From positions 38,265 through 102,264 of the forward strand of contig CALUKI010000006.1 in NCBI GenBank assembly GCA_944321175.1: a stretch of 64,000 nucleotides of DNA, written 5' to 3'. The number at the start of each line of letters is the position of its first letter. Position 1 is the first letter of the stretch. Below, one piece after another: positions 28,811 through 62,844 of the stretch. The notes under the pieces are model-generated. The model was not told the origin of the DNA. It was given only the letters and a program-made list of their open reading frames with translations, and ran no database searches. Source of the DNA: an uncultured Alistipes sp. (lineage in GTDB: Bacteria; Bacteroidota; Bacteroidia; Bacteroidales; Rikenellaceae). The translations under genes and the position numbers were made by a program.

Positions 28811-29092
28811 CGGCGGAAAAATTATTTGCAAATATAGGGATTTTTGGGAGCCCACACCCAACAGACCGCATAAAAAAATTCAGCGCGGCCGTTGTTGCCC
28901 CGTACCTTCCGGAACTCCGCCTTGCGCGGCCCCCATAGCCCGAAGACGGAAAGCCCCCGGACAGCCGAATCGCGGGAACCGGTCCGGAAGGGAGGGGCTC
29001 CGGCGCCGCAGGATTCGGCCGAAAAACGCAAATATCCCTCCGGCAAGACAATTAAATTGTCAAATTATATTTTGAACCCTCCGCTTTTTCGC

Positions 29093-29100
29093 TATCTTTG
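29093..29100 (+). promoter_or_regulatory. -7 promoter element (TATCTTTG) for the DUF4988-type lipoprotein gene
   Basis: TAnnTTTG with a TTTG at 29071-29074. Confidence 0.6.
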
Positions 29101-29152
29101 TGTCCGTTTGTTGCCCGGACAAATTCCATTTACACAAAATATTCTTTGCCTT

Positions 29153-31390
29153 ATGAAAAAACTCTTTCTACTCCTTGCGGGTTTCGGCATGCTGACAGCC
29201 GGATGCAGCGACTCGTATGACGACTCCGAACTCGTCAAGCGCATGGACGAGTTCGAGCAACGCCTTCAGAAACTCGAACAGCTCTGCAACAGCATGAACA
29301 CGAACCTCTCCTCCATGCAGAGTATCGTCACCGCCCTCGAAAAGGGGGATTACATAACCTCCGTCGAGCCGCTCACCGAGAACGGGGCCGTCGTCGGCTA
29401 CACGATCAAGTTCGCCAAGAGCACGCCCATCGTCATCTATCACGGTGAGGACGGCGCGTCGCCCGTCATCGCGATCAAACAGGATACGGACGGAACCTAT
29501 TACTGGACGCTCAACGGCGAATGGCTTACCGACGCCGGGGGGGGGAAGCTTCCCGTTGCCGGGAAAGACGGCATGACGCCCAAGCTGAAGATCGAAGAGG
29601 AGTATTGGTACATCTCCTATGACGACGGAAAGACATGGACAAAGCTCGACAAGGCGACCGGTGACGGCATCCAGATCGAGATGGACGAAAACTACGTCTA
29701 TTTCATCCTGCCGGACGGGACAAAGATCACCGTACCCACCGTCAAGCCCTTCGACATGACGCTTTCCGGCGCCGAGCCGCAAAGCTTCACAATCGACATC
29801 AAGGCCCGCGACGGGCAGCAAAACTATTATGTCGGAGTTACCACCCGTACCGAATTCGAAAAACTGGAGTCGCCGGCGGCCGTTGCCGAGGCATTCATCC
29901 AGCTCGAAGAGCAAAACGGCCAAGTCGATTGGAGTGTCGCCGACGGCCAACTCGTTCACAAAGGGGACAAGAGCATCGAAGCCGGAGCCGTCTGGAACCT
30001 GAAGCCCAAGACGGAATATGCAGTCATGGTCTTCGGCGTCACGGCCGAGGGTGAAGTTGCGACAGATCCCGTTTACGGATTCATCACCACAACCGAGGTC
30101 CAGCCTTCGACCAACCGGATCAGCGTGACGGTAGAGCCCGGCACGGCCGTCGTGAAGGTCGAAACGACCAACTCCGACCCCTACTTCCTCAACTGCATCG
30201 AAGCCGACCGTATCGAGGGCTATCCGCTCGACCAGCTGGCTCAGCACATGATCGGTATCTACGGCATGGCGCTCGACCAGTGCATCGAGACGGGGAACGT
30301 GGAGCGGGATTTCACCCCCATCCTCGATGAAGATACCGACTACTGCGCCGTAGCGTTCGGCTGCGTGGCCGGTTATCCGACGACCGATGTCGTTGTCGTC
30401 GAGTTCCACACCCCCGGCGGAGGACTGGTGCCGCAGGACTGCACCTTCGAGTCGCAGGTAACCGACCTCAATGCAACGGGCGGAACCGTTACCGTAACGC
30501 CGTCAAACCCCGAAACGTCCTACTTCTGGCAGGTTTACAACAAGGTGCTCATTGACAGCTATGCCGACAAGGGCGGTGCCGCCGCGCTGATGAACGACGG
30601 TCTGGCCATCATTGCCGAGGCGCTCTCGGAACAATACGGATTCGAAATCACGGTCGAGGCGGCTGCCGGCATGGTTACCACAACCGGCACCGACCAGTTC
30701 ACCTACTTCGAGCAGTGGGATCCCGATACGGAGTATTGCGTCGTAGCCGTGGGGCTCGACGACAAGGCCCGCCAGACGACCGATGTCTATGTCTCGGAAC
30801 CCTTCCGCACGCTCGCCGAATCGACCGTCGATCTGCAACCGATGGCCTGCACGATCACGCTCAACTCCGTTACGGAAGAGGGGCTCAACATGACGGTCAT
30901 CCCCGAAGACAAGCAGATGACCTATGTCGGCATGGTCGGTGAGGCCGATTTCCTCATGGAGTATCCCTCCGACAACGACTACCTGATCGATGATCTGGCC
31001 ATGTGGAAAGAGATGGCCTCTGCAGAGACAATGAGCGCCGCAGAAATGTTCGACATGTTCGGGCTCTTCCTGCAGGGAGACCAGACCTTCACGATTCCCA
31101 ACCTCGACCTCGGCATCAGTTTCGACCCCGGCACGACCTATGTGGCCTACGCTTACGGTCTGAGCGAGGCGGATGTCCTGACGACCGGCATGCAGAGTGT
31201 CTTCTTTACGGTCGATGAGAGCGGAACGATCACGACCGTCGCAGCGCCGACCCGCCCGGCCAACCGTCCGGTTGCCCTTCCCAAGACGCTCGACCGCCGT
31301 TTTGCCGGATGCCGCCCCGCAACGGCTGCCGCACGGCCCGCAATGCCCGACGCGCCCCTTGCAAAGCGGAACCCCGCGACATTCGAATAG
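29153..31390 (+). CDS. Surface lipoprotein, DUF4988/PL29-N-like stalk plus four FN3-like repeats
   Basis: Lipobox TAGC then SDSYDDSEL, coiled coil, GEDG/GKDG, YYWTLNGEWL, and repeated L.P.T.Y...(F/Y)G units. Confidence 0.85.
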   Translation: MKKLFLLLAGFGMLTAGCSDSYDDSELVKRMDEFEQRLQKLEQLCNSMNTNLSSMQSIVTALEKGDYITSVEPLTENGAVVGYTIKFAKSTPIVIYHGEDGASPVIAIKQDTDGTYYWTLNGEWLTDAGGGKLPVAGKDGMTPKLKIEEEYWYISYDDGKTWTKLDKATGDGIQIEMDENYVYFILPDGTKITVPTVKPFDMTLSGAEPQSFTIDIKARDGQQNYYVGVTTRTEFEKLESPAAVAEAFIQLEEQNGQVDWSVADGQLVHKGDKSIEAGAVWNLKPKTEYAVMVFGVTAEGEVATDPVYGFITTTEVQPSTNRISVTVEPGTAVVKVETTNSDPYFLNCIEADRIEGYPLDQLAQHMIGIYGMALDQCIETGNVERDFTPILDEDTDYCAVAFGCVAGYPTTDVVVVEFHTPGGGLVPQDCTFESQVTDLNATGGTVTVTPSNPETSYFWQVYNKVLIDSYADKGGAAALMNDGLAIIAEALSEQYGFEITVEAAAGMVTTTGTDQFTYFEQWDPDTEYCVVAVGLDDKARQTTDVYVSEPFRTLAESTVDLQPMACTITLNSVTEEGLNMTVIPEDKQMTYVGMVGEADFLMEYPSDNDYLIDDLAMWKEMASAETMSAAEMFDMFGLFLQGDQTFTIPNLDLGISFDPGTTYVAYAYGLSEADVLTTGMQSVFFTVDESGTITTVAAPTRPANRPVALPKTLDRRFAGCRPATAAARPAMPDAPLAKRNPATFE

Positions 31391-32971: not shown

Positions 32972-35125
32972 TCAACGAAGCCGCATCAGTTTGGGAACGG
33001 ACGATGTGGCAGGAGGCGTATCGGATCCCGCCTCGGTGAGAACCCGCACCACCTTGAGCGGCGTCGTAATCACCCCGTCCGGCGTACAGCCGTAGGCATA
33101 GACCACATATCCCGTCGAAGCCCACAGGTTCTCGGCCCTCAGCACGGCATCTCCCGTGAGCAGTTCATCCGACAGCGTCCGGCCCTCCGTCAGGTTGTAC
33201 TCCGTCCAAAAGAGGTCGTCGGCCGCAAACTGCATATCGTCTTCGAAGTCATAATACGACGAACTCGTGTCGAGGTGGCACATGTAGGTCAGAGCCGGAT
33301 TCGACGGCTTGACCCTAATGTCCAGATTCTGGCGCGAAACCGTTACATCCAGATCGAACGTGCAGCTCTCCGTCGGCACGAAAGCCGGCGTATGGAACTC
33401 CTTCTTCACGACATCCGTGCGAACCTCCTTTTCGTCCACACCGAACACGATCAGGCAATAGTCCGTATCGGGAACCAGCGGCCGCAGCGCCTCCGAAGCC
33501 AGCTGGTTCTCCCGAATCCATACCCTGGGCACCGACATGTGCTGCGTGCCCGTCGAGGAGAGATCCGTCCATTTGATCGTCTGATCCATGTACAGCTCGT
33601 CGTAATAACGCTCCTCGTAGGACTTGACATAAGCCGCCGCAACCTCCGCATCGGAGAGCGTACCGCCATCCTCGCCCGTAAAGGCCGAGTGCTTGACGAT
33701 TCCGTGGAAATAGTGCAGGTCATCGCTCGGAACGACATCGTACTCCGCGCCGTACCATGTAAGTTGGTCGAGACTGACCCGATATCTGGTATTGACGACC
33801 ACCGGAGCCGTCGTCTTGAACGGAACCTTCATTACCGGCGTGGAAGGATCCAGCACACCGTCCTCCTTGTTCTCTTCAAGGCCGAAAGCGATCAGGTAAT
33901 AGGACTCTCCGGCCGTCAACGGCGTCGAAGCCAGCGAAACGAAATTATACGTCCCCGTATGCATGTACATGTCACGATAATAGTCCCACATGCCGTACGC
34001 AAAATAATAGTCGAACATCGCCTTCAGCTCGTTGACAACGGCCGTCTCGCCCTTCTCGTCGAATGTTGCGGCGCTATATGCCGAAACGTAATAGGAAATC
34101 GACGGATCCTTGGCCGTAACGGTTGCCGAGACGCTTTTGTCGGTCACCTCGGTGATGTCGATCGTAAAATAGTCGCCTTCGGTCACTCCCGTCTGGCTCT
34201 TCTCCACGACGACCTCCATTTTGGCAATCGAACTGCGCTCCGCGCCGTCGGAATAGATCACGGCCACCACGCCCTCGGCCTCATAATTCTCCACGCTCTC
34301 GGCGGGCGCCGTTATGCTCAGCACATTCTCCTTGAGCGCGGCACGCCATCCGTCCGGTTTGGTCACGACGGTCTCCGCGACACCGTTGCTCTCCACCTCA
34401 TAGGTCTTTGTCTCGCCGTAAACGAAGGTCGCCGTATCGGGAGCCTTGCGCAGGATCAGATAGAAATCCGAACGCTTCGCAACCGTTATCACCGAACCGT
34501 CCGCAAGCGTAAAATAGACATTGTCGGCATCCTGCGTCACGGCACGGAAGAACGACTCCTGAATTGCCGCTTCCTCGTCCGTCACCGCCTTGACGGGATC
34601 TCCCGCAGCATCCGTAATCCGCGTCCAGACCGTACCGCCGTCATAGCTGACGATCCAATAGCCTTCGGCATCGACACCCAGCTGCGGCGGAGTCGTCTCG
34701 GCCGTGACGCGCAGTTTCCGCCCTGCATCGTCGGTCAGGAAATCGGTCGTCCCGTCACTGGTTATCGTCCAGTAATAGACGCCGTCGACCTCTTTCACGC
34801 CGATCACCGGCGCATCCTTGCCGGCGGCACCGTCCGATCCGTTCGTAATCGTCGCCTTCGTATCGTCCGAGAAGTAGATCGTATAGCTCTCGCCGTCCGT
34901 GCTTGTCTCGACTTTCACGACCGAGACGTTGGCTTCGAGTTTCCCGATCAGCGCATCCATCGTCGTGATCTCCTCGTTGAGCTTGCCCAGCTGTGTTTCA
35001 AGTGCCGCCACCCGATTCTTCAGATCCTCCAGGCCATTACGCAGCTCCGTGTCGTCGTAATCGTCCGAGCAGGCGCCCAAAGTACATAACGCCAGAGCCA
35101 TTCCCCATAGCAAAATGTGTTTCAT
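32972..35125 (-). CDS. Surface lipoprotein, DUF4988/PL29-N-like stalk plus three FN3-like repeats
   Basis: Lipobox LGAC then SDDYDDTEL, coiled coil, GSDGAAGKDAP, VYYWTI; repeats like those of the 29153 gene. Confidence 0.85.
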   Translation of the reverse strand: MKHILLWGMALALCTLGACSDDYDDTELRNGLEDLKNRVAALETQLGKLNEEITTMDALIGKLEANVSVVKVETSTDGESYTIYFSDDTKATITNGSDGAAGKDAPVIGVKEVDGVYYWTITSDGTTDFLTDDAGRKLRVTAETTPPQLGVDAEGYWIVSYDGGTVWTRITDAAGDPVKAVTDEEAAIQESFFRAVTQDADNVYFTLADGSVITVAKRSDFYLILRKAPDTATFVYGETKTYEVESNGVAETVVTKPDGWRAALKENVLSITAPAESVENYEAEGVVAVIYSDGAERSSIAKMEVVVEKSQTGVTEGDYFTIDITEVTDKSVSATVTAKDPSISYYVSAYSAATFDEKGETAVVNELKAMFDYYFAYGMWDYYRDMYMHTGTYNFVSLASTPLTAGESYYLIAFGLEENKEDGVLDPSTPVMKVPFKTTAPVVVNTRYRVSLDQLTWYGAEYDVVPSDDLHYFHGIVKHSAFTGEDGGTLSDAEVAAAYVKSYEERYYDELYMDQTIKWTDLSSTGTQHMSVPRVWIRENQLASEALRPLVPDTDYCLIVFGVDEKEVRTDVVKKEFHTPAFVPTESCTFDLDVTVSRQNLDIRVKPSNPALTYMCHLDTSSSYYDFEDDMQFAADDLFWTEYNLTEGRTLSDELLTGDAVLRAENLWASTGYVVYAYGCTPDGVITTPLKVVRVLTEAGSDTPPATSSVPKLMRLR

Positions 35126-35483
35126 ACGCAAAAATGTTTAGAATTAGTGTTAGAAATTTCGTATTTACAGGGCCGATATGAAAAACGCACATGAACGGAT
35201 TGGTAAAGTTACCCTTTCCCCTATGGAATAATTCTACCAAAACCCCCTCTTCTTTTGCCGAAAAGGCGTATTTTCGAGTGCGAGCGACGATTGAATCGGG
35301 GAAACCGGCCGGCGGATCGGATGGGTTCAACCGTTCCGAAGAGACCGGAGACGCCACGCCGCCCGATCCGCGAGAAAGGGCCAGAAAGAGAAATTTCCCG
35401 TCGGGGAGAGCCTTTGCCGGACTTCGGCCGGAACCGACAAGAACCCGTTATCTGCGGCTACGGCGCCTGCCGCGAGGGCCGTG

Positions 35484-36437
35484 TCAACCTTTCGGCGGCT
35501 TCGCGGCCTCCGGATCATCGCAGGAGGAGAATACGCCGGTGGCACGGGCTGCGGTCGGATGTATGTCTTCCGTAAGCGTCGAGTGTGGTGCGGATGAGCC
35601 GTCGATAAAACTTATCCGACCTTCGTAGCAGGCGGTATATTGTGTTCCGTCGCCCGTTTTCAGCGTGAGATCGATCCGGTAAAGATCGTTCGTGCGGACG
35701 ATTTCAACATGACCTCCGACCGTATAGAGCGGATCGAGTGCATGGCCGTCGGTGTCATGGCGAATGATACGGGTTGCCTCTGCGGAGTTGAAGGTGCCGT
35801 AGCTCGGTGTGTCGGAGAGATTGGCGGTGTAGGATCCTGAGAGCTCCAAGTCGGCAAAGGTTGTCGCCGGAAGATTCAGATCGATTACAATCGACATCGC
35901 CGGATAGTGCGGGGCGGCAGGGTCGGTCTCGCTCAGTTCAAGAAGCAGATTGTCGAGGAGGCCGGCAGCTTGCGGATTGTCGCCGAGATAACGGGCTGCG
36001 GCCTGCTCCATGACAATGGGTTCTGTCTGTGGCGGGATCTCTGCGGCGCTTTGACGGATTGTCACGGATACCGGATCGACATTCGATCCTCGCAGGGTTA
36101 CGGTTGCCTGTCTGTCTGCGGTTGTCGGATTGGGTTGTGCCGTGACGGATGCATTTCCGGAGACGACACCCCTGTTTTCGTTAACGGTCAGCCATTCCGA
36201 ATCGGACGCGGCTGACCATTCCGTATTTTTGACCGTGACCGCAAGCTGCCGTGTGCCGCCGTCGGCGTCGAAATTGAGCGTGAGGGGTTCGGCCGTCAGT
36301 ACCGCCTCTTCCGTTGGAGGATCTTTCCGAGGATCGTCGATCGGCAGCTCTGCCGTGTCCCGACAGGCTCCGAAAAGCAATGCTCCTGCAAGAAGAAGCA
36401 TGGTTACGATGTGGTTTGCCGATCGTTTGCCTGCCAT
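35484..36437 (-). CDS. BACON-domain lipoprotein, C-terminally truncated paralog of 56721..58088
   Basis: Lipobox FGAC, FDADGGTRQL...WSA...WLTV BACON pattern; stops about 140 aa earlier than its paralog; TATTTTTG element at 36459-36466. Confidence 0.75.
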   Translation of the reverse strand: MAGKRSANHIVTMLLLAGALLFGACRDTAELPIDDPRKDPPTEEAVLTAEPLTLNFDADGGTRQLAVTVKNTEWSAASDSEWLTVNENRGVVSGNASVTAQPNPTTADRQATVTLRGSNVDPVSVTIRQSAAEIPPQTEPIVMEQAAARYLGDNPQAAGLLDNLLLELSETDPAAPHYPAMSIVIDLNLPATTFADLELSGSYTANLSDTPSYGTFNSAEATRIIRHDTDGHALDPLYTVGGHVEIVRTNDLYRIDLTLKTGDGTQYTACYEGRISFIDGSSAPHSTLTEDIHPTAARATGVFSSCDDPEAAKPPKG

Positions 36438-36556
36438 GTTACGGATTCTTTTATTGTTCAAAAATAATAAAAAAAGCCCGAAAAAGAGCAGATATGGGCC
36501 TGTATTACCGAAGTCCGTCATTGAAAAACCGACGGAACCAAACCGTGCGATAAAAG

Positions 36557-46877: not shown

Positions 46878-47312
46878 ATGGCTGTAAGATATTACAATGA
46901 AGCGTGTTCGTACCGGCTGCCGGAAAAACGGCGGACGGCGGCGTGGCTGCATCGTGTCGCCGCCGAAGAGGGATATGCGCTGTCCGACGTGAACTACATC
47001 TTCTGCTCGGCCGAACGGCTGCTGGAAATGAACCGCCGGTTTCTCGGGCACGACTACTATACCGACGTGATCACCTTCGATTACAGCGACCGCCGCAAAT
47101 GCCGCACGGTCGCCGGAGATATTTTCATCGATGTGGAGACCGTCGCGGACAACGCCCGCATCTATGGTGCGACCCGTCTCGGCGAAATGCGCCGTGTAAT
47201 CGTACACGGACTGCTGCACCTCTGCGGGCAGAAGGACAAGACTCCCCGCACGAATGCCGCCATGCACCGCAAGGAGGACAAATACCTGCGCTATTGGGAG
47301 GAGGAGAAATGA
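46878..47312 (+). CDS. ybeY: rRNA maturation RNase YbeY
   Basis: DYYTDVITF, GDIFI, HGLLHLCG. Confidence 0.96.
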   Translation: MAVRYYNEACSYRLPEKRRTAAWLHRVAAEEGYALSDVNYIFCSAERLLEMNRRFLGHDYYTDVITFDYSDRRKCRTVAGDIFIDVETVADNARIYGATRLGEMRRVIVHGLLHLCGQKDKTPRTNAAMHRKEDKYLRYWEEEK

Positions 47313-49192
47313 CGCTTCATTACGATATCATCGTCATCGGAGGAGGACACGCCGGCTGCGAGGCCGCATCGGCCGCCGCACGGTTGGGCTCACGCACGCT
47401 GCTGTTGACAATGGACATGACCAAACTGGCCAACATGTCCTGCAATCCTGCCGTAGGAGGCGTCGCCAAGGGGCAGATCGTCCGCGAGATCGACGCGCTG
47501 GGCGGCCGGATGGCCCGTATCACCGATCGAACCACCCTGCAGTTCCGCATGCTCAACCGCTCGAAAGGAGCCGCCATGTGGAGTCCCCGCGCACAATGCG
47601 ACAAAAGCCGTTTTTCGGCCGAATGGCGGCACGAACTGGAAAATACGGAGAACCTCTACATCTGGCAGGACGCGGCCGTAGAACTGCTCTTTGAGGGCGA
47701 GAACGGGCACTCCCGCATCGCAGGAGTGCGCACGCGCATGGGAGTGACATTCTCCGCAGAGTGCGTGATTCTCACGGCAGGGACCTTTCTCAACGGGCTC
47801 ATGCACTGCGGAGCGGCCCATGCCGCGGGCGGACGGGCCGGCGATGCCGCAGCAACAGGAATTACCGAGTCGCTCGCAGACCGGGGATTCGAAGTGGGCC
47901 GAATGAAAACCGGAACCCCCGCGCGTCTCGATGCCCGTACCATCAATTTCGACGCGCTGGAACTTCAAAACGGGGACGAGACCCCCTCCAAATTTTCATT
48001 TTCTACTGACACACAGGCAGTTAAACATCAACTACCCTGTTTTCTCGTCTATACCACTGCGGAAGTGCACGCCATTCTGCGCAGCGGATTCGACCGTTCG
48101 CCGCTCTTCAACGGGACGATTCACGGCATCGGCCCCCGCTACTGCCCGTCGATCGAGGACAAGCTGCGGACCTTCGCAGAGAAGGATCAACACCAGTTAT
48201 TCCTTGAACCTGAGGGAGAAAGCACAAACGAATACTACCTGAACGGCTTTTCCTCCTCACTGCCCTGGGAGGTACAGTACGAAGCCCTGCATCGGATCCG
48301 GGGTTTGGAGAATGTACACATCTATCGGCCGGGTTATGCCATCGAATACGACTACTTCCCTCCGACGCAACTGCACCATACGCTCGAAACAAAACTTGTC
48401 GAGGGGCTTTACTTCGCCGGACAGGTGAACGGCACGACCGGCTACGAAGAGGCTGCCGCCCAGGGATTGATGGCCGGAATCAATGCCCACCACAAACGGA
48501 CAGGCAAAAAACCGGTCATTCTGCAACGGGACCAGGCCTACATTGGGGTGCTGATCGATGACCTCGTAACAAAGGGGGTCGATGAACCGTATCGCATGTT
48601 CACCTCCCGCGCCGAATACCGGATTCTGTTGAGGCAGGACAATGCCGATCTGAGACTGACCCCGATCGGACATGAAATCGGGTTGATCACGACAAAGGAA
48701 TTCGCCGTTTTCGAGCAAAAAAAATCGTTCGTAGAATCGCTTCTATCTTTCGCCCGCCGCACGAGCATCCATGCAGGCGAAATCGACGACTACCTGAAAA
48801 CGGTCGATTCCGAACCCATGCGTCAGGGGAAAAGAGTTTATGATCTCGTATTACGCAACGGAATTACTGTCGAGGGGCTTGCCGATGCACTTCCGAAGCT
48901 GAAGAATTTCATCGAGAAAAACGGGATTTCGCCCGAAGCCGTAGAAGAGGCGGAGATTCAGATCAAATACAACGGGTACATCCAGCGGGAAAAACACATT
49001 GCCGAAAAGTTGCACCGGCTGGAAGAGATCGCCATTCCGGATGACTTCGATTACATGTCGATGCAGTCGCTGACCATCGAAGCGCGGCAAAAACTGATCC
49101 GTATCCGCCCGAAAACCATCGGACAGGCATCGCGGATTCCGGGAGTATCCCCTGCCGACATCAACGTGCTGCTGGTAAAATTCGGGCGTTAG
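47309..49192 (+). CDS. mnmG: tRNA uridine-5-carboxymethylaminomethyl modification enzyme
   Basis: VIGGGHAG, SCNPAVGG, GPRYCPSIEDK, GQVNGTTGYEEAAAQG; ATGA overlap with ybeY. Confidence 0.99.
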   Translation: MTLHYDIIVIGGGHAGCEAASAAARLGSRTLLLTMDMTKLANMSCNPAVGGVAKGQIVREIDALGGRMARITDRTTLQFRMLNRSKGAAMWSPRAQCDKSRFSAEWRHELENTENLYIWQDAAVELLFEGENGHSRIAGVRTRMGVTFSAECVILTAGTFLNGLMHCGAAHAAGGRAGDAAATGITESLADRGFEVGRMKTGTPARLDARTINFDALELQNGDETPSKFSFSTDTQAVKHQLPCFLVYTTAEVHAILRSGFDRSPLFNGTIHGIGPRYCPSIEDKLRTFAEKDQHQLFLEPEGESTNEYYLNGFSSSLPWEVQYEALHRIRGLENVHIYRPGYAIEYDYFPPTQLHHTLETKLVEGLYFAGQVNGTTGYEEAAAQGLMAGINAHHKRTGKKPVILQRDQAYIGVLIDDLVTKGVDEPYRMFTSRAEYRILLRQDNADLRLTPIGHEIGLITTKEFAVFEQKKSFVESLLSFARRTSIHAGEIDDYLKTVDSEPMRQGKRVYDLVLRNGITVEGLADALPKLKNFIEKNGISPEAVEEAEIQIKYNGYIQREKHIAEKLHRLEEIAIPDDFDYMSMQSLTIEARQKLIRIRPKTIGQASRIPGVSPADINVLLVKFGR

Positions 49193-49253: not shown

Positions 49254-49269
49254 TGTTCCACGTGGAACA
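49254..49269. other. parS centromere site (perfect palindrome)
   Basis: TGTTCCACGTGGAACA, parS-type 16-mer in the mnmG-ilvE intergenic space. Confidence 0.85.
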
Positions 49270-49353: not shown

Positions 49354-50367
49354 TTATTCGACGACAACCGTCCAACCATAGGGATCTTCGCAACGGCCGT
49401 ACTGAATATCCTGCAATTTGTTATACATCTCCAAGCAGCGTTTGCCGGGCTCTTCGCCGAAATGCCATTCACGACCCGTCTCCTTGTCATAAATATAGGA
49501 GATCGGAGAGATCACGGCAGCCGTACCGCACGCAGCACACTCCTCGAACGTCGAGAGCTCATCGACGGCAACGGGACGCTCCTCGACCTTCATACCCATA
49601 TCCTTTGCCAATTGACGAAGACTCTTGTTGGTAATAGAGGGCAAAATCGACGTCGATTTCGGCGTAACATAGGTATTATCCTTGATGCCGAAGAAATTGG
49701 CCGCTCCGCACTCCTCGATGTATTTCCGATGCACCGCATCGACAAACATCGAATTCGCAAAGCCCTCTGCGTTGGCGACCTCACCGGCCTCAAGGCTTGC
49801 CGCATAATTGCCGCCGCATTTTACGTCGCCTGTTCCACGTGGAGCAGCGCGGTCGAAATCGGGGTTCACAACCACACGGATCGGCTTGATACCCTCCTTG
49901 AAATAGGCGCCGACCGGCGAAACAAAAATACCGACGAGGAACTCCTTCGCGGGATGGACACCCAAAAAGGCACCCATGCCAATCTCATACGGACGAATAT
50001 ACAACGTTGCACCCGTACCATACGGAGGTACGAAACGTTCGTTCGCCTTGACAACCATACGGCACATCTCGACGAAGGTCTCGACCGGCAACTCGGCCAT
50101 ACATAATTTACGGGCCGAAGCGGCAAAACGCCTGCCGTTTTCGTCGGGCCGGAACAACCGGATCTTGCCATCCTTGCCCCGAAAAGCCTTCAATCCCTCA
50201 AAGGATTCGACCCCGTAGTGCAGGCAGGGGGCCGACATATGAATCGAGATATACTCATCCTGCGTAAGCTCCGGCTCGCCCCATTTCCCGTCCTTGCAGG
50301 CGACACGAACATTGTAATCCGTTTTGTGGTAGTTGAACGGCAGGGATGCCCAATCAAAGTTCTCCAT
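49354..50367 (-). CDS. ilvE: Branched-chain amino acid aminotransferase
   Basis: LHYGVESFEGLKA, KCGGNY (PLP Lys), ILPSIT, CGTAAVISP. Confidence 0.97.
   Translation of the reverse strand: MENFDWASLPFNYHKTDYNVRVACKDGKWGEPELTQDEYISIHMSAPCLHYGVESFEGLKAFRGKDGKIRLFRPDENGRRFAASARKLCMAELPVETFVEMCRMVVKANERFVPPYGTGATLYIRPYEIGMGAFLGVHPAKEFLVGIFVSPVGAYFKEGIKPIRVVVNPDFDRAAPRGTGDVKCGGNYAASLEAGEVANAEGFANSMFVDAVHRKYIEECGAANFFGIKDNTYVTPKSTSILPSITNKSLRQLAKDMGMKVEERPVAVDELSTFEECAACGTAAVISPISYIYDKETGREWHFGEEPGKRCLEMYNKLQDIQYGRCEDPYGWTVVVE
49831..49846. other. Second parS-like site inside ilvE
   Basis: TGTTCCACGTGGAGCA, 15/16 match to the 49254 site. Confidence 0.6.
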
Positions 50368-56720: not shown

Positions 56721-58088
56721 ATGACAGGGAGACAATCGTCGAGACATTGCGCGGCAATGCTTCTTATTGCGGGAGTATTGTTTTGCACGGCCTGCCGGCA
56801 CGCCGAGGAGCCGCCGGCAGCGGATTTTCGGAAGGATCCTCCGGCGGAGAAACAGGTGCTGAAGGTCGAACCTTCATCGCTGCACTTCGATGCCGGGGGA
56901 GGGACACAACGGCTCTTCATCACGGCCGAAAACTGCGAATGGTCCGCTATCCCCGACGCCGAATGGCTGACCGTCACCGAAAATCAAGGAACCTCCTCGG
57001 CAGAAATCTTCGTCACGGCAGCCCCCAACCCTGCAAACGGGCCCCGAAACGGCAGTGTGACCGTGACCGGTCCGGACGCCGCCGTCTGCCGCATAACCGC
57101 AGAACAAAAGGGCGCAGAAACTCCGGCGACAGATCCGATCGATCTGGAACAGGCCACCGCCTTTTATCTCGGCGACCGGTTCCAAACAGGAGGGAAGCTC
57201 GACAACATCCGGGTGGAAATGAGCGGAGCCGACCCCTCTTCCGCCGATTACTCCACAACGGAGATCATTCTCGATCTGAACATTCCGGCAACTACCTTTG
57301 CCGATGCGGAGCTCGCAGGCTCCTACACCGCCAACCTCTCCGACACACCGAGCTGCGGAACATTCAACTCCGCAGAGGCAACCCGTATCATCCGCCACGA
57401 CACCGACGGCCATGCGCTCGATCCGCTCTATACGGTCGGAGGGCACGTTGAAATCCTCCGGACAAACGATCTTTACCGGATCGATCTCTCGTTGAAAACG
57501 GGCGACGGAACACCATTTGCCGCCCGCTACGAAGGGCCGATAAGCTTCATCGACGGCACTTCCGCCCCACACTCCACGCTTACGGAAGACGTACAACCGG
57601 CCGTACTTCGTGCCACCGGGCTGTTTTCCTCATACGCCGACATGGAAACGGAGGCCAAAAAGCTCGTTCTGCAATTTTACAGCGACCTCTCCGTACTGCC
57701 GGTCGAGAACATGATGTGGACGCTCAATGTCGAACCGCAAGCAGCGGAAACAGGCGCAATCGAAGGGATTTACAAGGTCATCGAAAAACCTGCACCGGCT
57801 CTCGCCGCAGAGGATCTGCAGGCAGGAACGATCGTTGCAGGAGCCGTGTCGGAGGATGAAGCCGGAGAACGGATCTTCAGCGGCAGCTGGTACCGCTGCC
57901 TGACTGCGAAAAACGGCCAAGCGGAACTGACGGCTTTCGCGCCCTTTGCCAGCGGGGAAGTCACCATCTCCCGAAAAGAGGAGCGCTACACGATCGATTA
58001 CCGTTTTACCGACGACAATCCTCTTGCACCCCATACCATTTCGGGCAGCTACACAGGAACGATCGATTTTCAGAATCTCGGAGAGTGA
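56721..58088 (+). CDS. BACON-domain lipoprotein (full-length paralog)
   Basis: Lipobox CTAC, BACON pattern, then two related beta-rich domains ending in YEGPI and YTGTI; TATTTTTG element at 56694-56701. Confidence 0.85.
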   Translation: MTGRQSSRHCAAMLLIAGVLFCTACRHAEEPPAADFRKDPPAEKQVLKVEPSSLHFDAGGGTQRLFITAENCEWSAIPDAEWLTVTENQGTSSAEIFVTAAPNPANGPRNGSVTVTGPDAAVCRITAEQKGAETPATDPIDLEQATAFYLGDRFQTGGKLDNIRVEMSGADPSSADYSTTEIILDLNIPATTFADAELAGSYTANLSDTPSCGTFNSAEATRIIRHDTDGHALDPLYTVGGHVEILRTNDLYRIDLSLKTGDGTPFAARYEGPISFIDGTSAPHSTLTEDVQPAVLRATGLFSSYADMETEAKKLVLQFYSDLSVLPVENMMWTLNVEPQAAETGAIEGIYKVIEKPAPALAAEDLQAGTIVAGAVSEDEAGERIFSGSWYRCLTAKNGQAELTAFAPFASGEVTISRKEERYTIDYRFTDDNPLAPHTISGSYTGTIDFQNLGE

Positions 58089-60151: not shown

Positions 60152-60434
60152 TGTTCATTCAGTTTAATTCTTGTTTCCGCATACGGACACCGCCGCTGCA
60201 TTCCCGCCTGAAAACAGGCACCAATGCACCACCGACAGAGATTTCCCGTGCCGCTTCGCCGCTTACGGCTCTTCTTTGTTCCGTTTCGAACAGCTCTTCG
60301 GCAATATCCGGACGTTTCCTCACGACGGGTCGCGGGCCGCACGCTGTTCCCTACAAAGATAAGGATTTTTTACGACTATACTGCGATCTGACAAAATATC
60401 GTTATATTTGTTGGATCATACTCGAATCAGATTT

Positions 60435-61493
60435 ATGGAGCAAAAAATCAAAAAGCTGCTTTCGACGATCGTTCATCCCGAAAGCGGACGCAATATCCTC
60501 GAAAGCGGTATCGTGGAGCGCGTGGATCTCCAGGAGGGGAAAATCGCCGTCACGCTGCGTTTCGACAAAGCCCGCGATCCCTTCGCACTGAAAATCAAAC
60601 ATCAGATTCAAGAGATACTCGCCAAGGAACTGCCGTTCGACAAAGAACGCATTACGGTCTTCTTCAAAGAGGCGGCACCGCATGCGCAACAACCTGCCGG
60701 GCGCCGCACGCAGACGGGCGGAATCGGTAAAATCCTTGCCGTTGCTTCCGGCAAGGGCGGTGTGGGGAAATCGACAGTCACAGCCAATCTGGCCCTTATC
60801 CTGCGCAACATGGGTTATCGGGTCGGCATCCTCGATGCCGATATTTACGGCCCTTCGCAGCCGAAAATGTTCGGGGTGGAGGATTATCTTCCCGAAGCCG
60901 AACGCATCGACGGCGAAGATTGCATTCTTCCGGCCGACGCAATGGATATCAAACTCATGTCGATCGGTTTCTTCATCAAGCCCTCCGATGCATTGATCTG
61001 GCGCGACGCAATGGCGACGAACGCCTTGCGGCAGATGATCCATCAGACGAAGTGGGGAGGTCTCGATTTTCTGCTCATCGACCTTCCGCCGGGAACGGGC
61101 GGCGTTCATCTGGCCGTCATCTCGGAGTTGAAGATCACGGGCGCCGTCATCGTTTCCACACCTCAGCAGGTCGCCGTAGCCGACGTGCGGCGCGGTGTGG
61201 AGATGTTCCGCGCCGAGAAGATCGAAATTCCCGTCGTGGGAATCATTGAAAACATGGCATGGTTCACCCCTAAAGAGCTGCCCGAAAACCGGTATTATCT
61301 CTTCGGACGGGGCGGCGCCCGTGCCTTCGCAGAGAAAAACGATGTTCCTTTCCTGGGAGAAATACCTATCGTCCAATCCGTTATGGATGGATCGGAAGAG
61401 GGACGCCCTGCTGCGGGCACCGATCCGATGGTTGAATCCTGCTACCGTTCCATAGCTGAAAAAATTGTTGAAAACATGACAAAATCATGTTGA
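60435..61493 (+). CDS. Mrp/NBP35-family P-loop ATPase (ApbC-like) with N-terminal DUF59-like domain
   Basis: GKGGVGKST, DADIYGPS, DLPPGTG, STPQ, IENM; TATATTTG element at 60403-60410. Confidence 0.95.
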   Translation: MEQKIKKLLSTIVHPESGRNILESGIVERVDLQEGKIAVTLRFDKARDPFALKIKHQIQEILAKELPFDKERITVFFKEAAPHAQQPAGRRTQTGGIGKILAVASGKGGVGKSTVTANLALILRNMGYRVGILDADIYGPSQPKMFGVEDYLPEAERIDGEDCILPADAMDIKLMSIGFFIKPSDALIWRDAMATNALRQMIHQTKWGGLDFLLIDLPPGTGGVHLAVISELKITGAVIVSTPQQVAVADVRRGVEMFRAEKIEIPVVGIIENMAWFTPKELPENRYYLFGRGGARAFAEKNDVPFLGEIPIVQSVMDGSEEGRPAAGTDPMVESCYRSIAEKIVENMTKSC

Positions 61494-61900
61494 CAACATG
61501 TCGGAAGACGGACGATAAAAAATGATAAATACAAAGGGAAAAAGTTGCAAAATCCATTCGCCCGCCGTGTGTATGGAAAAACCGAAAAAACAAGAAATAG
61601 TTTTCAAAAGTTATCACGAATAAAAGAGGGATGGAGAAGAGGCGATTGTTGAGAAAAAATCGCTGTTGAAGTGTTGAAAAAAACTATTGACAATTGTTGA
61701 AACAAAGAAGAAAGCAGGTCTTAAATAGTGATAATCAACTGTAAAATACGATAGGACAAGACAGGGTCGGGAAAATGGCAGATGATAAAATGATGATAAG
61801 TCCGGCCCGAATAAAGTTGCGAAACTTATCGACAGGCTTTATTTATCTTCTTGTTCCTTTAAAATTTAAATGTGTTTAAAATTAAAATCAAATAAACAAC
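61466..61900. other. Candidate chromosomal replication origin (oriC)
   Basis: Very AT-rich 420-bp gap, at least 7 TTNTCAACA/TTATCGACA-like 9-mers, AT-rich unwinding tract, nearby parS and mnmG, apparent strand-bias switch. Confidence 0.72.
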
Positions 61901-61914
61901 AAAAGAGGGAAGGT

Positions 61915-62844
61915 ATGGTCGAAAAACTCCGTGCACGGATCGAAGAGCTCAAACGGGAAAAGAACGCCGTTATTCTCGCACACTATTATACGCGTCCTGA
62001 AGTACAGGCCGTTGCCGACTTTCTGGGGGATTCACTGGCTTTGTCCATCGAGGCCAGGCGCACCGATGCGCGCATCATCCTCTTTGCCGGAGTCCACTTC
62101 ATGGCTGAAACGGCCAAAGTGCTGTGTCCTGACCGCAAGGTCCTCATTCCGGTGCGCGAAGCAGGATGTTCGCTTGCCGAAAGCTGCCAGGGCGATGCTT
62201 TCCGGCGTTTCCGTGCGCTTTATCCCGACCACAAGGTGATTTCGTATGTCAATACGTCGGTCGAAGTCAAGGCGCAGACGGATATCTGCTGCACCTCATC
62301 GAATGCACTGAAGATCGTGGAGTCTATTCCGGCCGATGTTCCGATTCTCTTCGGACCCGATCGGAATCTCGGACGTTATGTGCAGCGTCTGAGCGGCCGC
62401 AGCAACATGGTGATCTGGGACGGTGCCTGTGCCGTGCATGAACGTTTTTCGTCGTCGGGGATTCTTCAGTTGAAAGCGGAACATCCTTCGGCGCAGGTGG
62501 TTGCCCATCCGGAGTGTCCGTGCGAAGTGGTTGCTTTGGCGGACTATACGGGTTCGACGGCCGGCATACTGGATTATTGCGGTCGGAGCGGGACGAAGGA
62601 GTTTATCGTGGCAACGGAAGCCGGTATTTTCCGTGAATTGGAACGCCGTTGTCCGGAGAAGGCATTCATTGCCGCTCCGACGCTTGACGGCCGGATGCCC
62701 AATGAGTGTGAGGATATGAAATTGGCGACGCTGGAGCGTATTGTCGATTGTCTGGAGCGGGAGAGTCCTGAAGTGACGATCGACGAGGAGGTGCGTCGTG
62801 CTGCGGAGCGTTCCATTCTGCGGATGATTGAGGTTCACGGATAG
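61915..62844 (+). CDS. nadA: Quinolinate synthase
   Basis: ILAHYY, GDSLALS, GVHFMAETAK, AGCSLA, GACAVH, HPEC, NECEDMK. Confidence 0.98.
   Translation: MVEKLRARIEELKREKNAVILAHYYTRPEVQAVADFLGDSLALSIEARRTDARIILFAGVHFMAETAKVLCPDRKVLIPVREAGCSLAESCQGDAFRRFRALYPDHKVISYVNTSVEVKAQTDICCTSSNALKIVESIPADVPILFGPDRNLGRYVQRLSGRSNMVIWDGACAVHERFSSSGILQLKAEHPSAQVVAHPECPCEVVALADYTGSTAGILDYCGRSGTKEFIVATEAGIFRELERRCPEKAFIAAPTLDGRMPNECEDMKLATLERIVDCLERESPEVTIDEEVRRAAERSILRMIEVHG

Follow-up and report, generated by a model that had tools for sequence, protein, structure and literature searches.

A probable chromosomal replication origin between mrp and nadA in an uncultured Alistipes-like bacterium

The locus and the question

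Does the A/T-rich gap between the genes mrp and nadA mark the site at which an uncultured Alistipes sp. (Rikenellaceae) begins to replicate its chromosome? The gap lies in a 64,000-nucleotide stretch of contig CALUKI010000006.1 (assembly GCA_944321175.1, positions 38,265 to 102,264), which we call the window and to which all coordinates refer. An earlier note on this DNA had proposed that the gap is the chromosomal origin, oriC, and that the initiator protein DnaA acts there through boxes of the TTNTCAACA type. Our analysis supports that proposal, and does so through the density of boxes, a switch in GC skew, conservation, agreement with origin calls in the DoriC database, the periodicity of a triplet run, and the presence of parS-like sites and mnmG. 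We consider it highly likely, judging from the sequence, that the mrp–nadA spacer is the chromosomal oriC of this Rikenellaceae/Alistipes-like bacterium. The origin is very probably of the ordinary type, with DnaA boxes and a basal unwinding system (BUS), is unlinked from dnaA, and uses a relaxed box, TTATC[A/G/C]ACA. Beyond this genome, origins seem to adjoin nadA across much of the Bacteroidota.

A dense array of DnaA-like boxes

The mrp–nadA spacer (61494–61914) is 421 bp long and has 34% GC in a window of ~57% GC. Of all 300-bp stretches in the window, the one richest in AT (68%) falls here, which agrees with the earlier description of the most AT-rich long gap in the window. The 9-mers listed previously are all present on the + strand, and none is on the - strand. 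Specifically, they are TGTTGAAAA (61466, 61672), TGTTGACAA (61488), TGTTGAGAA (61647), TGTTGAAGT (61664), TATTGACAA (61685), and TGTTGAAAC (61695). Their placement between mrp and nadA holds for all except the words at 61466 and 61488, which lie inside the last codons and the stop codon of mrp and correspond to boxes L1 and L2 of Table 1.

The clustering exceeds what base composition provides. Exact TGTTGA occurs 39 times on the two strands of the window, and six of its occurrences fall within 251 bp, a count that 0 of 100,000 composition-matched shuffles reached (mean 0.05, maximum 3). We also scored both strands of the window for TTATCNACA, allowing at most one or at most two mismatches. The interval 61451-61900 contains 6 of the window's 33 matches with at most one mismatch and is its densest 450-bp window; shuffles of the spacer gave a mean of 0.68 and a maximum of 5 such matches (5000 shuffles). 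With at most two mismatches, there are 21 matches in 476 bp (shuffle mean 7.2). The cluster of TTATNCACA-like 9-mers expected of an oriC is present well above background, and it is the densest such site in the 64-kb window. If C is demanded at box position 6, as in the strict consensus, only TTATCGACA is within one mismatch.

The boxes form three groups. The two on the left touch the end of mrp. In the relative L002, the position aligned with box L1 reads TGTGGATAA without a mismatch, yet it too encodes protein (Ile-Val-Asp-Lys), leaving its conservation ambiguous; directly after the mrp stop, relatives carry the boxes TGTTGATAA, TGTCGATAA, or TTGATAA. The five in the middle, M1 to M5, all have one orientation, and M4 overlaps CTATTGACA on the + strand. 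The box on the right, TTATCGACA, has the opposite orientation and anchors the module described below. We note that a perfect 7+1+7 palindrome, CATGTTGACAACATG (61486-61500), spans the mrp stop and sets two box-like words head to head, TTGTCAACA on the - strand and TTGACAACA on the + strand.

A putative unwinding module before nadA

The right end of the spacer has the elements of a BUS in their usual order. The published rule asks for a DnaA box with at most two mismatches, located 0-16 bp from at least three consecutive NAN trios on the strand complementary to 5'-TTATCCACA-3' (PMC8287927). The GC spacer averages 4 bp, a single box is permitted, and a tandem pair is the commonest arrangement, at 57% (PMC8287927). 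Here, TTATCGACA (one mismatch) is followed by a 4-nt spacer and seven trios, although a run of seven is only moderately unlikely in T-rich DNA. Read 3'->5' on the - strand, the candidate trios are A-centered: AAT AAA TAG AAG AAC AAG GAA. Beyond them is a candidate for the A/T-rich DNA unwinding element (DUE) that an oriC should possess, recognized by sequence from its 90% A/T content and from two near-identical 14-mers, TTTAAAATTTAAAT (61858-61871) and TTTAAAATTAAAAT (61875-61888).

The earlier note had anticipated this layout. The oppositely oriented box, the GGC that follows it, the candidate trios, and the candidate DUE are all found in the window, and the arrangement is conserved in relatives. 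Two details needed correction. The T-centered run is there, with seven triplets in a row once the spacer is taken as GGCT, whereas the frame given previously makes only five of six triplets T-centered. The A/T block is likewise present, at nearer 40-50 bp than the ~60 bp claimed.

We examined the trio run by a lag-3 periodicity test, which replaced a strict test for T-centered triplets. Over 32 distinct homologous modules, agreement is 0.50 at lag 3 and 0.49 at lag 6, and the remaining lags give 0.33-0.38 (z=6.5). In the window by itself, the periodicity is weak (0.53 and 0.56 vs. 0.35-0.50). The 3-nt periodicity supports the reading of these runs as putative trios at the level of the family.

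We picture initiation as follows. DnaA would bind approximately 9-10 nine-mers of the form TT(A/T/G)TC(A/G/C)ACA, here mostly with TCAACA, arrayed as the left pair at the mrp stop, the middle five (61647-61703) pointing left, and the right-pointing TTATCGACA (61826) abutting GGCT. From TTATCGACA, a DnaA filament would extend onto the A-centered triplets of the bottom strand (61839-61859) and would open the A/T block (61858-61897) directly before the nadA start codon. Helicases would be loaded at the opened block, and forks would depart both ways.

Table 1. Features of the candidate origin and of its neighborhood in the window
Feature	Position	Strand	Remarks
mnmG/gidA	46904..49192	+	Pfam GIDA 3.9e-159
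parS-like perfect 16-bp palindrome TGTTCCACGTGGAACA	49254..49269	.	In the gap directly downstream of mnmG, 12 kb from the spacer
Second parS-like site TGTTCCACGTGGAGCA	49831..49846	.	Inside a class-IV aminotransferase gene
mrp/apbC, Fe-S cluster carrier ATPase	60435..61493	+	NCBIfam ApbC/MrpORP matches; left flank
Box L1, TTTTCAACA (TGTTGAAAA on +)	61466..61474	-	Within mrp coding sequence, codons Ile-Val-Glu
Box L2, TTGTCAACA	61488..61496	-	Overlaps mrp stop codon, inside palindrome CATGTTGACAACATG
Conserved element GAAATAGTTTTC (AAAAAAAGTTTTC in relatives)	61594..61605	+	Invariant columns in alignment
Box M1, TTCTCAACA	61647..61655	-	Aligned with TGTT.A.AA / TGTGGACAA in 8/8 relatives
Box M2, ACTTCAACA	61664..61672	-	Aligned with conserved GGCTGTCGAAA in relatives
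Box M3, TTTTCAACA	61672..61680	-	Aligned with TGTCGACAA / TGTTGACAA / TGTGGTCAA / TGTGGAAAA in relatives
Box M4, TTGTCAATA (TATTGACAA on +)	61685..61693	-	Aligned with TTTCAACAA / TTTTGACAA in relatives
Box M5, GTTTCAACA	61695..61703	-	Aligned with TTGTCGA / TTGTTGA / TTGTGGA in relatives
Degenerate box TTATCATCA (TGATGATAA on +)	61791..61799	-	Aligned with conserved TGTTGATAG / TGTGGATAA / TGTCGAAAA in relatives
Distal tandem-box position, degenerate here, TTGCGAAAC	61817..61825	+	Relatives: TTGTCAACA / TTATCAACA / TTATCGACA / TTGTGAACA
Proximal box TTATCGACA	61826..61834	+	Anchors the module; relatives: GTATCAACA / CTATCAACA / TTATCGACA / CTATGAACA
G/C-rich spacer GGCT	61835..61838	+	Relatives: 1-4 nt G/C-rich spacers (GC, GCC, GGC, GCG, others) at the equivalent place
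Candidate DnaA-trios	61839..61859	-	+ strand: seven consecutive T-centered triplets TTA TTT ATC TTC TTG TTC CTT
Candidate A/T-rich DNA unwinding element	61858..61905	.	61858-61897 90% A/T; 61853-61905 83%
nadA, quinolinate synthase	61915..62844	+	NCBIfam NadA 4.8e-128; right flank

A switch in GC skew at the spacer

GC skew of the + strand is negative in nearly every 2-kb window up to ~61 kb and positive beyond. To the right, we extended the window by 5.2 kb with the near-identical metagenome contig L161 (99.5% identity), joined by blastn coordinates. Skew is -0.049 over positions 1-61700 and +0.096 over the 7.3 kb on the right, which bears out the impression previously gained from spot counts, and the AT skew flips too. 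Coding strands are G-rich, so we repeated the measurement on Pfam-verified genes; crude open reading frame calls gave several wrong strands, for example that of metG. Mean GC skew is -0.029 for the 19 + strand genes left of the site, -0.079 for the 14 - strand genes left of the site, and +0.068 for the six + strand genes right of it. The + strand genes of the two sides differ (Mann-Whitney p=0.001). The left genes yield terms of 0.054 for replication and 0.025 for transcription, whose sum predicts +0.079 for + strand genes on the right, near the +0.068 observed. Passing from C-rich to G-rich, the switch has the sign expected at an origin, opposite to that at a terminus. In a local, orientation-controlled test, the kind of switch that marks the cumulative GC-skew minimum of an oriC occurs here, as it does at the corresponding site in relatives.

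In the relatives, the skew changes sign at the spacer from -0.068 to +0.055 in L001 and from -0.078 to +0.065 in L002; L086 is ambiguous. For a wider comparison of nadA loci, we regressed per-gene skew on side and orientation. The side term is +0.058 in Bacteroidales (10 loci; 95% interval 0.045 to 0.071), +0.028 in Sphingobacteriales (5 loci; 0.006 to 0.045), and +0.017 in Chitinophagales (19 loci; 0.006 to 0.027). It is -0.002 in Cyanobacteria (9 loci; -0.018 to 0.010) and -0.007 in Flavobacteriales (3 loci; -0.020 to 0.017). The switch at nadA is a feature of Bacteroidales, is weaker in Chitinophagales and Sphingobacteriales, and is not found at cyanobacterial or Flavobacteriales nadA.

Conservation in the Alistipes group and a degenerate box position

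The closest NadA homologues that we found are only 64-70% identical. They come from the Alistipes metagenome-assembled genomes (MAGs) L001 and L002 and from the gut metagenome contigs L082-L087. The full order sppA-mrp-[spacer]-nadA-S46 peptidase is present in L001, L002, L086, and L087, and the shorter contigs show those parts that they reach. The earlier note had named conservation of the boxes upstream of nadA as a check on its proposal, and despite the modest NadA identity, the boxes are kept at aligned positions. A MAFFT alignment of the eight relatives' spacers has conserved blocks at every middle box listed previously. At the same alignment columns, TGTTGA, TGTCGA, and the canonical TGTGGA interchange, and the relatives put TTATCAACA, TTATCGACA, and TTATCCACA at shared positions. 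The spacer has four strain-level polymorphic sites, 0 of them in any box, which are too few to inform.

The unwinding module is likewise shared. In every relative, two boxes abut each other 64-71 bp before the start codon ATG of nadA and are followed by a GC, GGC, or GCG spacer, a T-rich run, and an equivalent of the A/T block. Examples of the tandem are TTGTCAACA abutting GTATCAACA, TTATCAACA abutting CTATCAACA, and TTATCGACA abutting a second TTATCGACA. Because in most relatives a TCAACA box abuts the GC spacer and the trios, the variant fills the very position that defines the DnaA box in a BUS.

Counting box cores in the eight spacers gives 30 TCAACA, 20 TCGACA, 7 TCCACA, and 0 TCTACA (the T variant, box TTATCTACA, in 0/57). 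From these counts, position 6 is degenerate (A > G > C, never T) and is not a fixed A; the window is its most A-biased member. The suggestion of a C-to-A box specific to the lineage consequently fails: position 6 is degenerate, and AACA-type boxes occur in Bacteroidales, in Sphingobacteriales, and in some Chitinophagales.

The nadA-linked module across much of the Bacteroidota

The same layout upstream of nadA is found in Bacteroides, Prevotella, Muribaculaceae/Duncaniella, and other Bacteroidales families. In these families, CTATTAACA is a frequent form of the drifted boxes, and TATTATTATT and ATCATCATCAT are examples of the triplet runs. Among Sphingobacteriales, Pedobacter has TTACTCACA abutting GTACCAACA, then CC and TTAATAAG. 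Chitinophagales have near-canonical boxes, TTTTCACA abutting TATTCACA, then CCCC and TAATAGTAGTG. In the Alistipes group, ~50–70 bp separate the module from nadA; over all groups, the module lies 50-170 bp upstream. Cyanobacterial and Flavobacteriales nadA upstream regions, read by eye, lack the module; a regular-expression screen found it in 0/15 cyanobacterial loci, with one doubtful match among 4 Flavobacteriales. Automatic per-taxon counts from such expressions under-detect the module (they miss L002 and Chitinophaga) and were not used.

DoriC origin calls combine whole-genome Z-curves with boxes. The supplement of Pelliciari et al. 2021 gives unwinding-module sequences inside DoriC origins, written 3'->5' (PMC8287927). 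After conversion to the top strand, two of these modules, those of Chitinophaga pinensis DSM 2588 (ORI93020100) and Niastella koreensis (ORI95030423), can be found with 2 substitutions in congeners, ~140 bp before the nadA gene; the matching loci belong to Chitinophaga sp. (L009, L028) and Niastella populi (L010). Given the basis of the DoriC calls, the homologous site has been independently predicted as an origin, far from record position 1. The Porphyromonas gingivalis W83 entry, TTTTCAACA GC ATC TTT ATT, has the same box type (PMC8287927 supplement). Our searches of the literature uncovered no paper on a linkage between nadA and the origin.

Two further entries of the same supplement (PMC8287927) deserve a comment of their own. 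The "species-specific" boxes of Tannerella forsythia ATCC 43037 and Flavobacteriaceae bacterium 3519-10 are given as 3'-ACAAGGTGC-5' and 3'-ACAAAGTGC-5'. Their top-strand forms are TGTTCCACG and TGTTTCACG, and in the listed sequences, each is directly followed by its own inverted copy. Because the inverted copy directly adjoins, these "boxes" look like parS palindromes, not DnaA boxes, and the two database origins may be misplaced.

Weighing the origin against other readings

Several observations weigh against an origin at this site. Perfect TTATCCACA is nowhere in the spacer. The distal partner of the tandem is degenerate, matching TTATCGACA at only 3/9 positions (TTGCGAAAC), while all Alistipes-group relatives have abutting tandem boxes. 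In T-rich sequence, the T-centered run is weakly above chance (family mean best run 3.7 vs. 2.95 +/- 0.25), and a stricter test with a start offset of at most 6 is not significant (3.1 vs. 2.8 +/- 0.26). The skew on the right is seen over only 7.3 kb here and ~10 kb in relatives, and the genes on the left have no - strand bias (27.3 kb on + vs. 22.7 kb on -). Wherever the module occurs, nadA is beside it and the left neighbor varies; no case separated from nadA was found, so synteny alone leaves room for a nadA-related role. Our literature searches turned up no experimental work on DnaA binding, unwinding, or replication at an origin of any member of the Bacteroidota.

The linkage to nadA feeds the sole rival with real support, namely, that the conserved block is a cis-regulatory region of nadA, with operators for an NAD regulator or DnaA boxes serving as operators. 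The module stays with nadA in every family seen while its left neighbor changes, and it sits 50-170 bp upstream of the nadA start, where an operator could be. Yet the skew switch has the sign of an origin here and in relatives and is absent at nadA where the module is lacking; approximately ten boxes in both orientations over 400 bp, together with a periodic run and an A/T block, form no operator layout; in Chitinophagaceae, DoriC-based origin calls fall at the corresponding site; and there is no NAD riboswitch or other Rfam match and no perfect -7 motif in the spacer. We regard a purely regulatory block as very improbable. A related reading accepts the origin and assigns the TGTTGA array (61647-61703) to a different, lineage-specific protein, leaving DnaA only TTATCGACA. 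Position 6 is strictly C in the E. coli DnaA-box consensus, TCCACA cores number 0 in the whole length of the window, and the middle boxes share one orientation with irregular 8-17 bp spacing, all of which fit a second protein. Its difficulty is that relatives carry TGTCGA and the canonical TGTGGA at the same aligned positions, that in most of them the box abutting the GC spacer and trios is itself TCAACA, and that the T variant accounts for 0/57 cores, as expected for one recognition specificity. A second protein is, in our estimation, unlikely.

Both E. coli and B. subtilis are known to have clusters of DnaA boxes apart from oriC, and with only ~7 kb covered on the right, the array could be imagined as a titration or reactivation site of the datA/DARS kind, near the true origin and distinct from it. 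Such sites would have to account for a full unwinding layout within the cluster, whose place coincides exactly with the skew switch in three genomes of the Alistipes group as well as in other Bacteroidales, while the 64 kb contain no second box cluster; we think the chances of this are slim. Finally, short T/A-rich words recur by chance in A/T-rich DNA, and the array might simply be a concentration of low-complexity words in an intergenic spacer. That idea is effectively refuted, with 0/100,000 and 0/5,000 composition-matched shuffles reaching the observed counts and with boxes conserved position by position. The origin reading is the one that we retain.

Neighboring genes

mnmG is a classical origin-proximal gene. 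The earlier note had counted on mnmG and parS near the site, and both are there, ~12 kb off (Table 1); by chance, 0.09 parS-like matches per window are expected. Its statement that no dnaA is adjacent also stands. Using a tblastn query validated on solved DnaA structures, we detected no DnaA homologue in the window, in its extension, or in any of 160 nadA loci (none within 69 kb).

At the locus, we found neither the adjacent rep/initiator gene nor the mobile context of a plasmid or integrative-element iteron origin: the neighbors sppA, mrp, nadA, and the S46 peptidase gene are housekeeping genes, the sppA-mrp-nadA-S46 order recurs in the Alistipes group, and nadA is the right neighbor phylum-wide. 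mrp is called as a 352-aa gene in near-identical contigs. The remaining genes of the window are housekeeping genes as well (ATP synthase, relA/spoT, pheS, metG, pgk, pepO, and sppA).

Separately, the window encodes two large DUF4988 proteins and two BACON-domain proteins (28892-31390 on +, 32972-35131 on -, 35484-36521 on -, and 56721-58088 on +); a sulfatase and a GH2 beta-galactosidase are encoded close by. The four proteins are surface proteins of the glycan-utilization type usual in Bacteroidales and have no relation to the origin.

Transcription, RNAs, and repeats in the spacer

At the gathering score, Rfam yields no NAD+ riboswitch and no credible RNA in the whole window, and at E<=1 over 61300-62100, it yields only two chance-level matches. 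A tRNA scan found none. A sigma-70/terminator scan, which does not model Bacteroidetes promoters, returned weak promoter-like matches only and no terminator after mrp. The perfect Bacteroidetes -7 motif, TAnnTTTG, is absent from the 421-bp spacer; perfect copies are located upstream of sppA and mrp (60354-60361 on - and 60403-60410 on +). Transcription may run on from mrp through the putative origin into nadA. The locus does not resemble a nadA riboswitch or operator, in that there is no Rfam match and the repeats are direct and on the same strand; operator motifs for NAD regulators such as NiaR, NrtR, and NadR were not scanned explicitly.

The conserved element GAAATAGTTTTC appears to match by position the AAAGTTWTTAACTTTG element of other putative Bacteroidales origins, which is seen in L003, L011, L033, L045, L061, L077, and L105. 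Those loci and L042 share the strongly conserved sequence AAAGTT(T/A)TTAACTTTG at ~200-250 bp before nadA, a partial palindrome that includes the Bacteroidetes -7 consensus without a mismatch (TAACTTTG). Of this sequence, only the AAAAAAAGTTTTC or GAAATAGTTTTC part is retained in the Alistipes group and in the window (61594-61612). The AAAGTT(T/A)TTAACTTTG element may be a promoter reading through the origin toward nadA, or another protein's site.

The spacer also has two pairs of direct repeats. The first pair is AAAGTTGCAAAA (61541-61552) and AAAGTTGCGAAA (61813-61824), and its first copy is kept as (A)AGTTGCAAAATCC in L085 and L086. The second pair is AATAAAAGAGGGATGG (61619-61634) and AACAAAAGAGGGAAGG (61898-61913), the latter directly before the nadA start codon.

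Comparison with known origins

The closest mechanistic parallel is the BUS of B. subtilis oriC (DnaA-boxes 6/7; PMC6669920, PMC8287927). Shared with it are the order and orientation of a TTATC.ACA box, a 2-4 nt G/C spacer, a triplet-periodic run that is A-centered on the bottom strand, and an A/T block. In contrast to B. subtilis, box position 6 is A/G/C here instead of C, the trios are mostly 3'-AAN/TAG-5' and not 3'-GAT-5', the distal tandem box is degenerate, and the putative origin is not beside dnaA-dnaN. The DoriC origins of Chitinophaga pinensis and Niastella koreensis, themselves predictions only, share the phylum, the location upstream of nadA (judged from congeners), and the succession of tandem box, GC, triplets, and A/T; they use the near-canonical CACA boxes TTTTCACA and TATTCACA, whereas the window has AACA/GACA.

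Other origins resemble this one in their surroundings. E. coli oriC (gidA/mnmG-oriC-mioC, with dnaA ~42 kb away) is likewise unlinked from dnaA and has mnmG nearby, multiple 9-mer boxes in both orientations, and A/T-rich repeated 13/14-mers in its unwinding element; the differences are that position 6 is relaxed here and that mnmG is 12 kb off, not adjacent. The hemE origins of Alphaproteobacteria (Caulobacter Cori type) offer a precedent for linkage to a metabolic gene, not to dnaA, across a large clade. The neighbor here is nadA, and no CtrA-type regulation is evident. hemE is an Ori-Finder indicator gene; the Ori-Finder 2022 list does not include nadA and has no Bacteroidetes rule. Finally, the origin oligonucleotides of Thermoanaerobacter tengcongensis (PMC2887958) contain repeated TGTTGATAA, that is, TTATCAACA, words and thereby provide a precedent for a box with A at position 6 in a bacterial origin, albeit in a member of the Firmicutes and in the context of an endonuclease study, not a study of box specificity.

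Implications

The wider pattern raises the idea that Bacteroidales, Chitinophagales, and Sphingobacteriales share one ancestral nadA-linked origin, composed of abutting boxes, GC, triplets, and A/T, and served by a DnaA box without a strict C at position 6 (A/G/C tolerated, T excluded; TTAACA in Bacteroides and Prevotella). We give this idea about even odds. If it is correct, a co-evolved change in the DnaA recognition helix would be implied, and AAAGTTWTTAACTTTG, the second conserved element, may be a promoter that drives transcription through the origin. In that case, nadA could also serve as an indicator gene by which to locate origins in genomes and MAGs of gut Bacteroidota, and the database box motifs for the phylum, some of them parS-half-like, would need revising.

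The Bacteroidota are the dominant Gram-negative phylum of the gut. A sequence definition of their origins (nadA as neighbor, TTATC[A/G/C]ACA, and tandem boxes with GC, triplets, and A/T) would place origins in draft genomes and MAGs, a placement that coverage-based estimates of growth rate need. It would also guide the design of oriC-based vectors, and it would supply a natural test case for the evolution of DnaA-box specificity. Taken alone, the window would present an ordinary, well-formed origin; the nadA-linked, relaxed-box pattern across much of the Bacteroidota is the more interesting lead.

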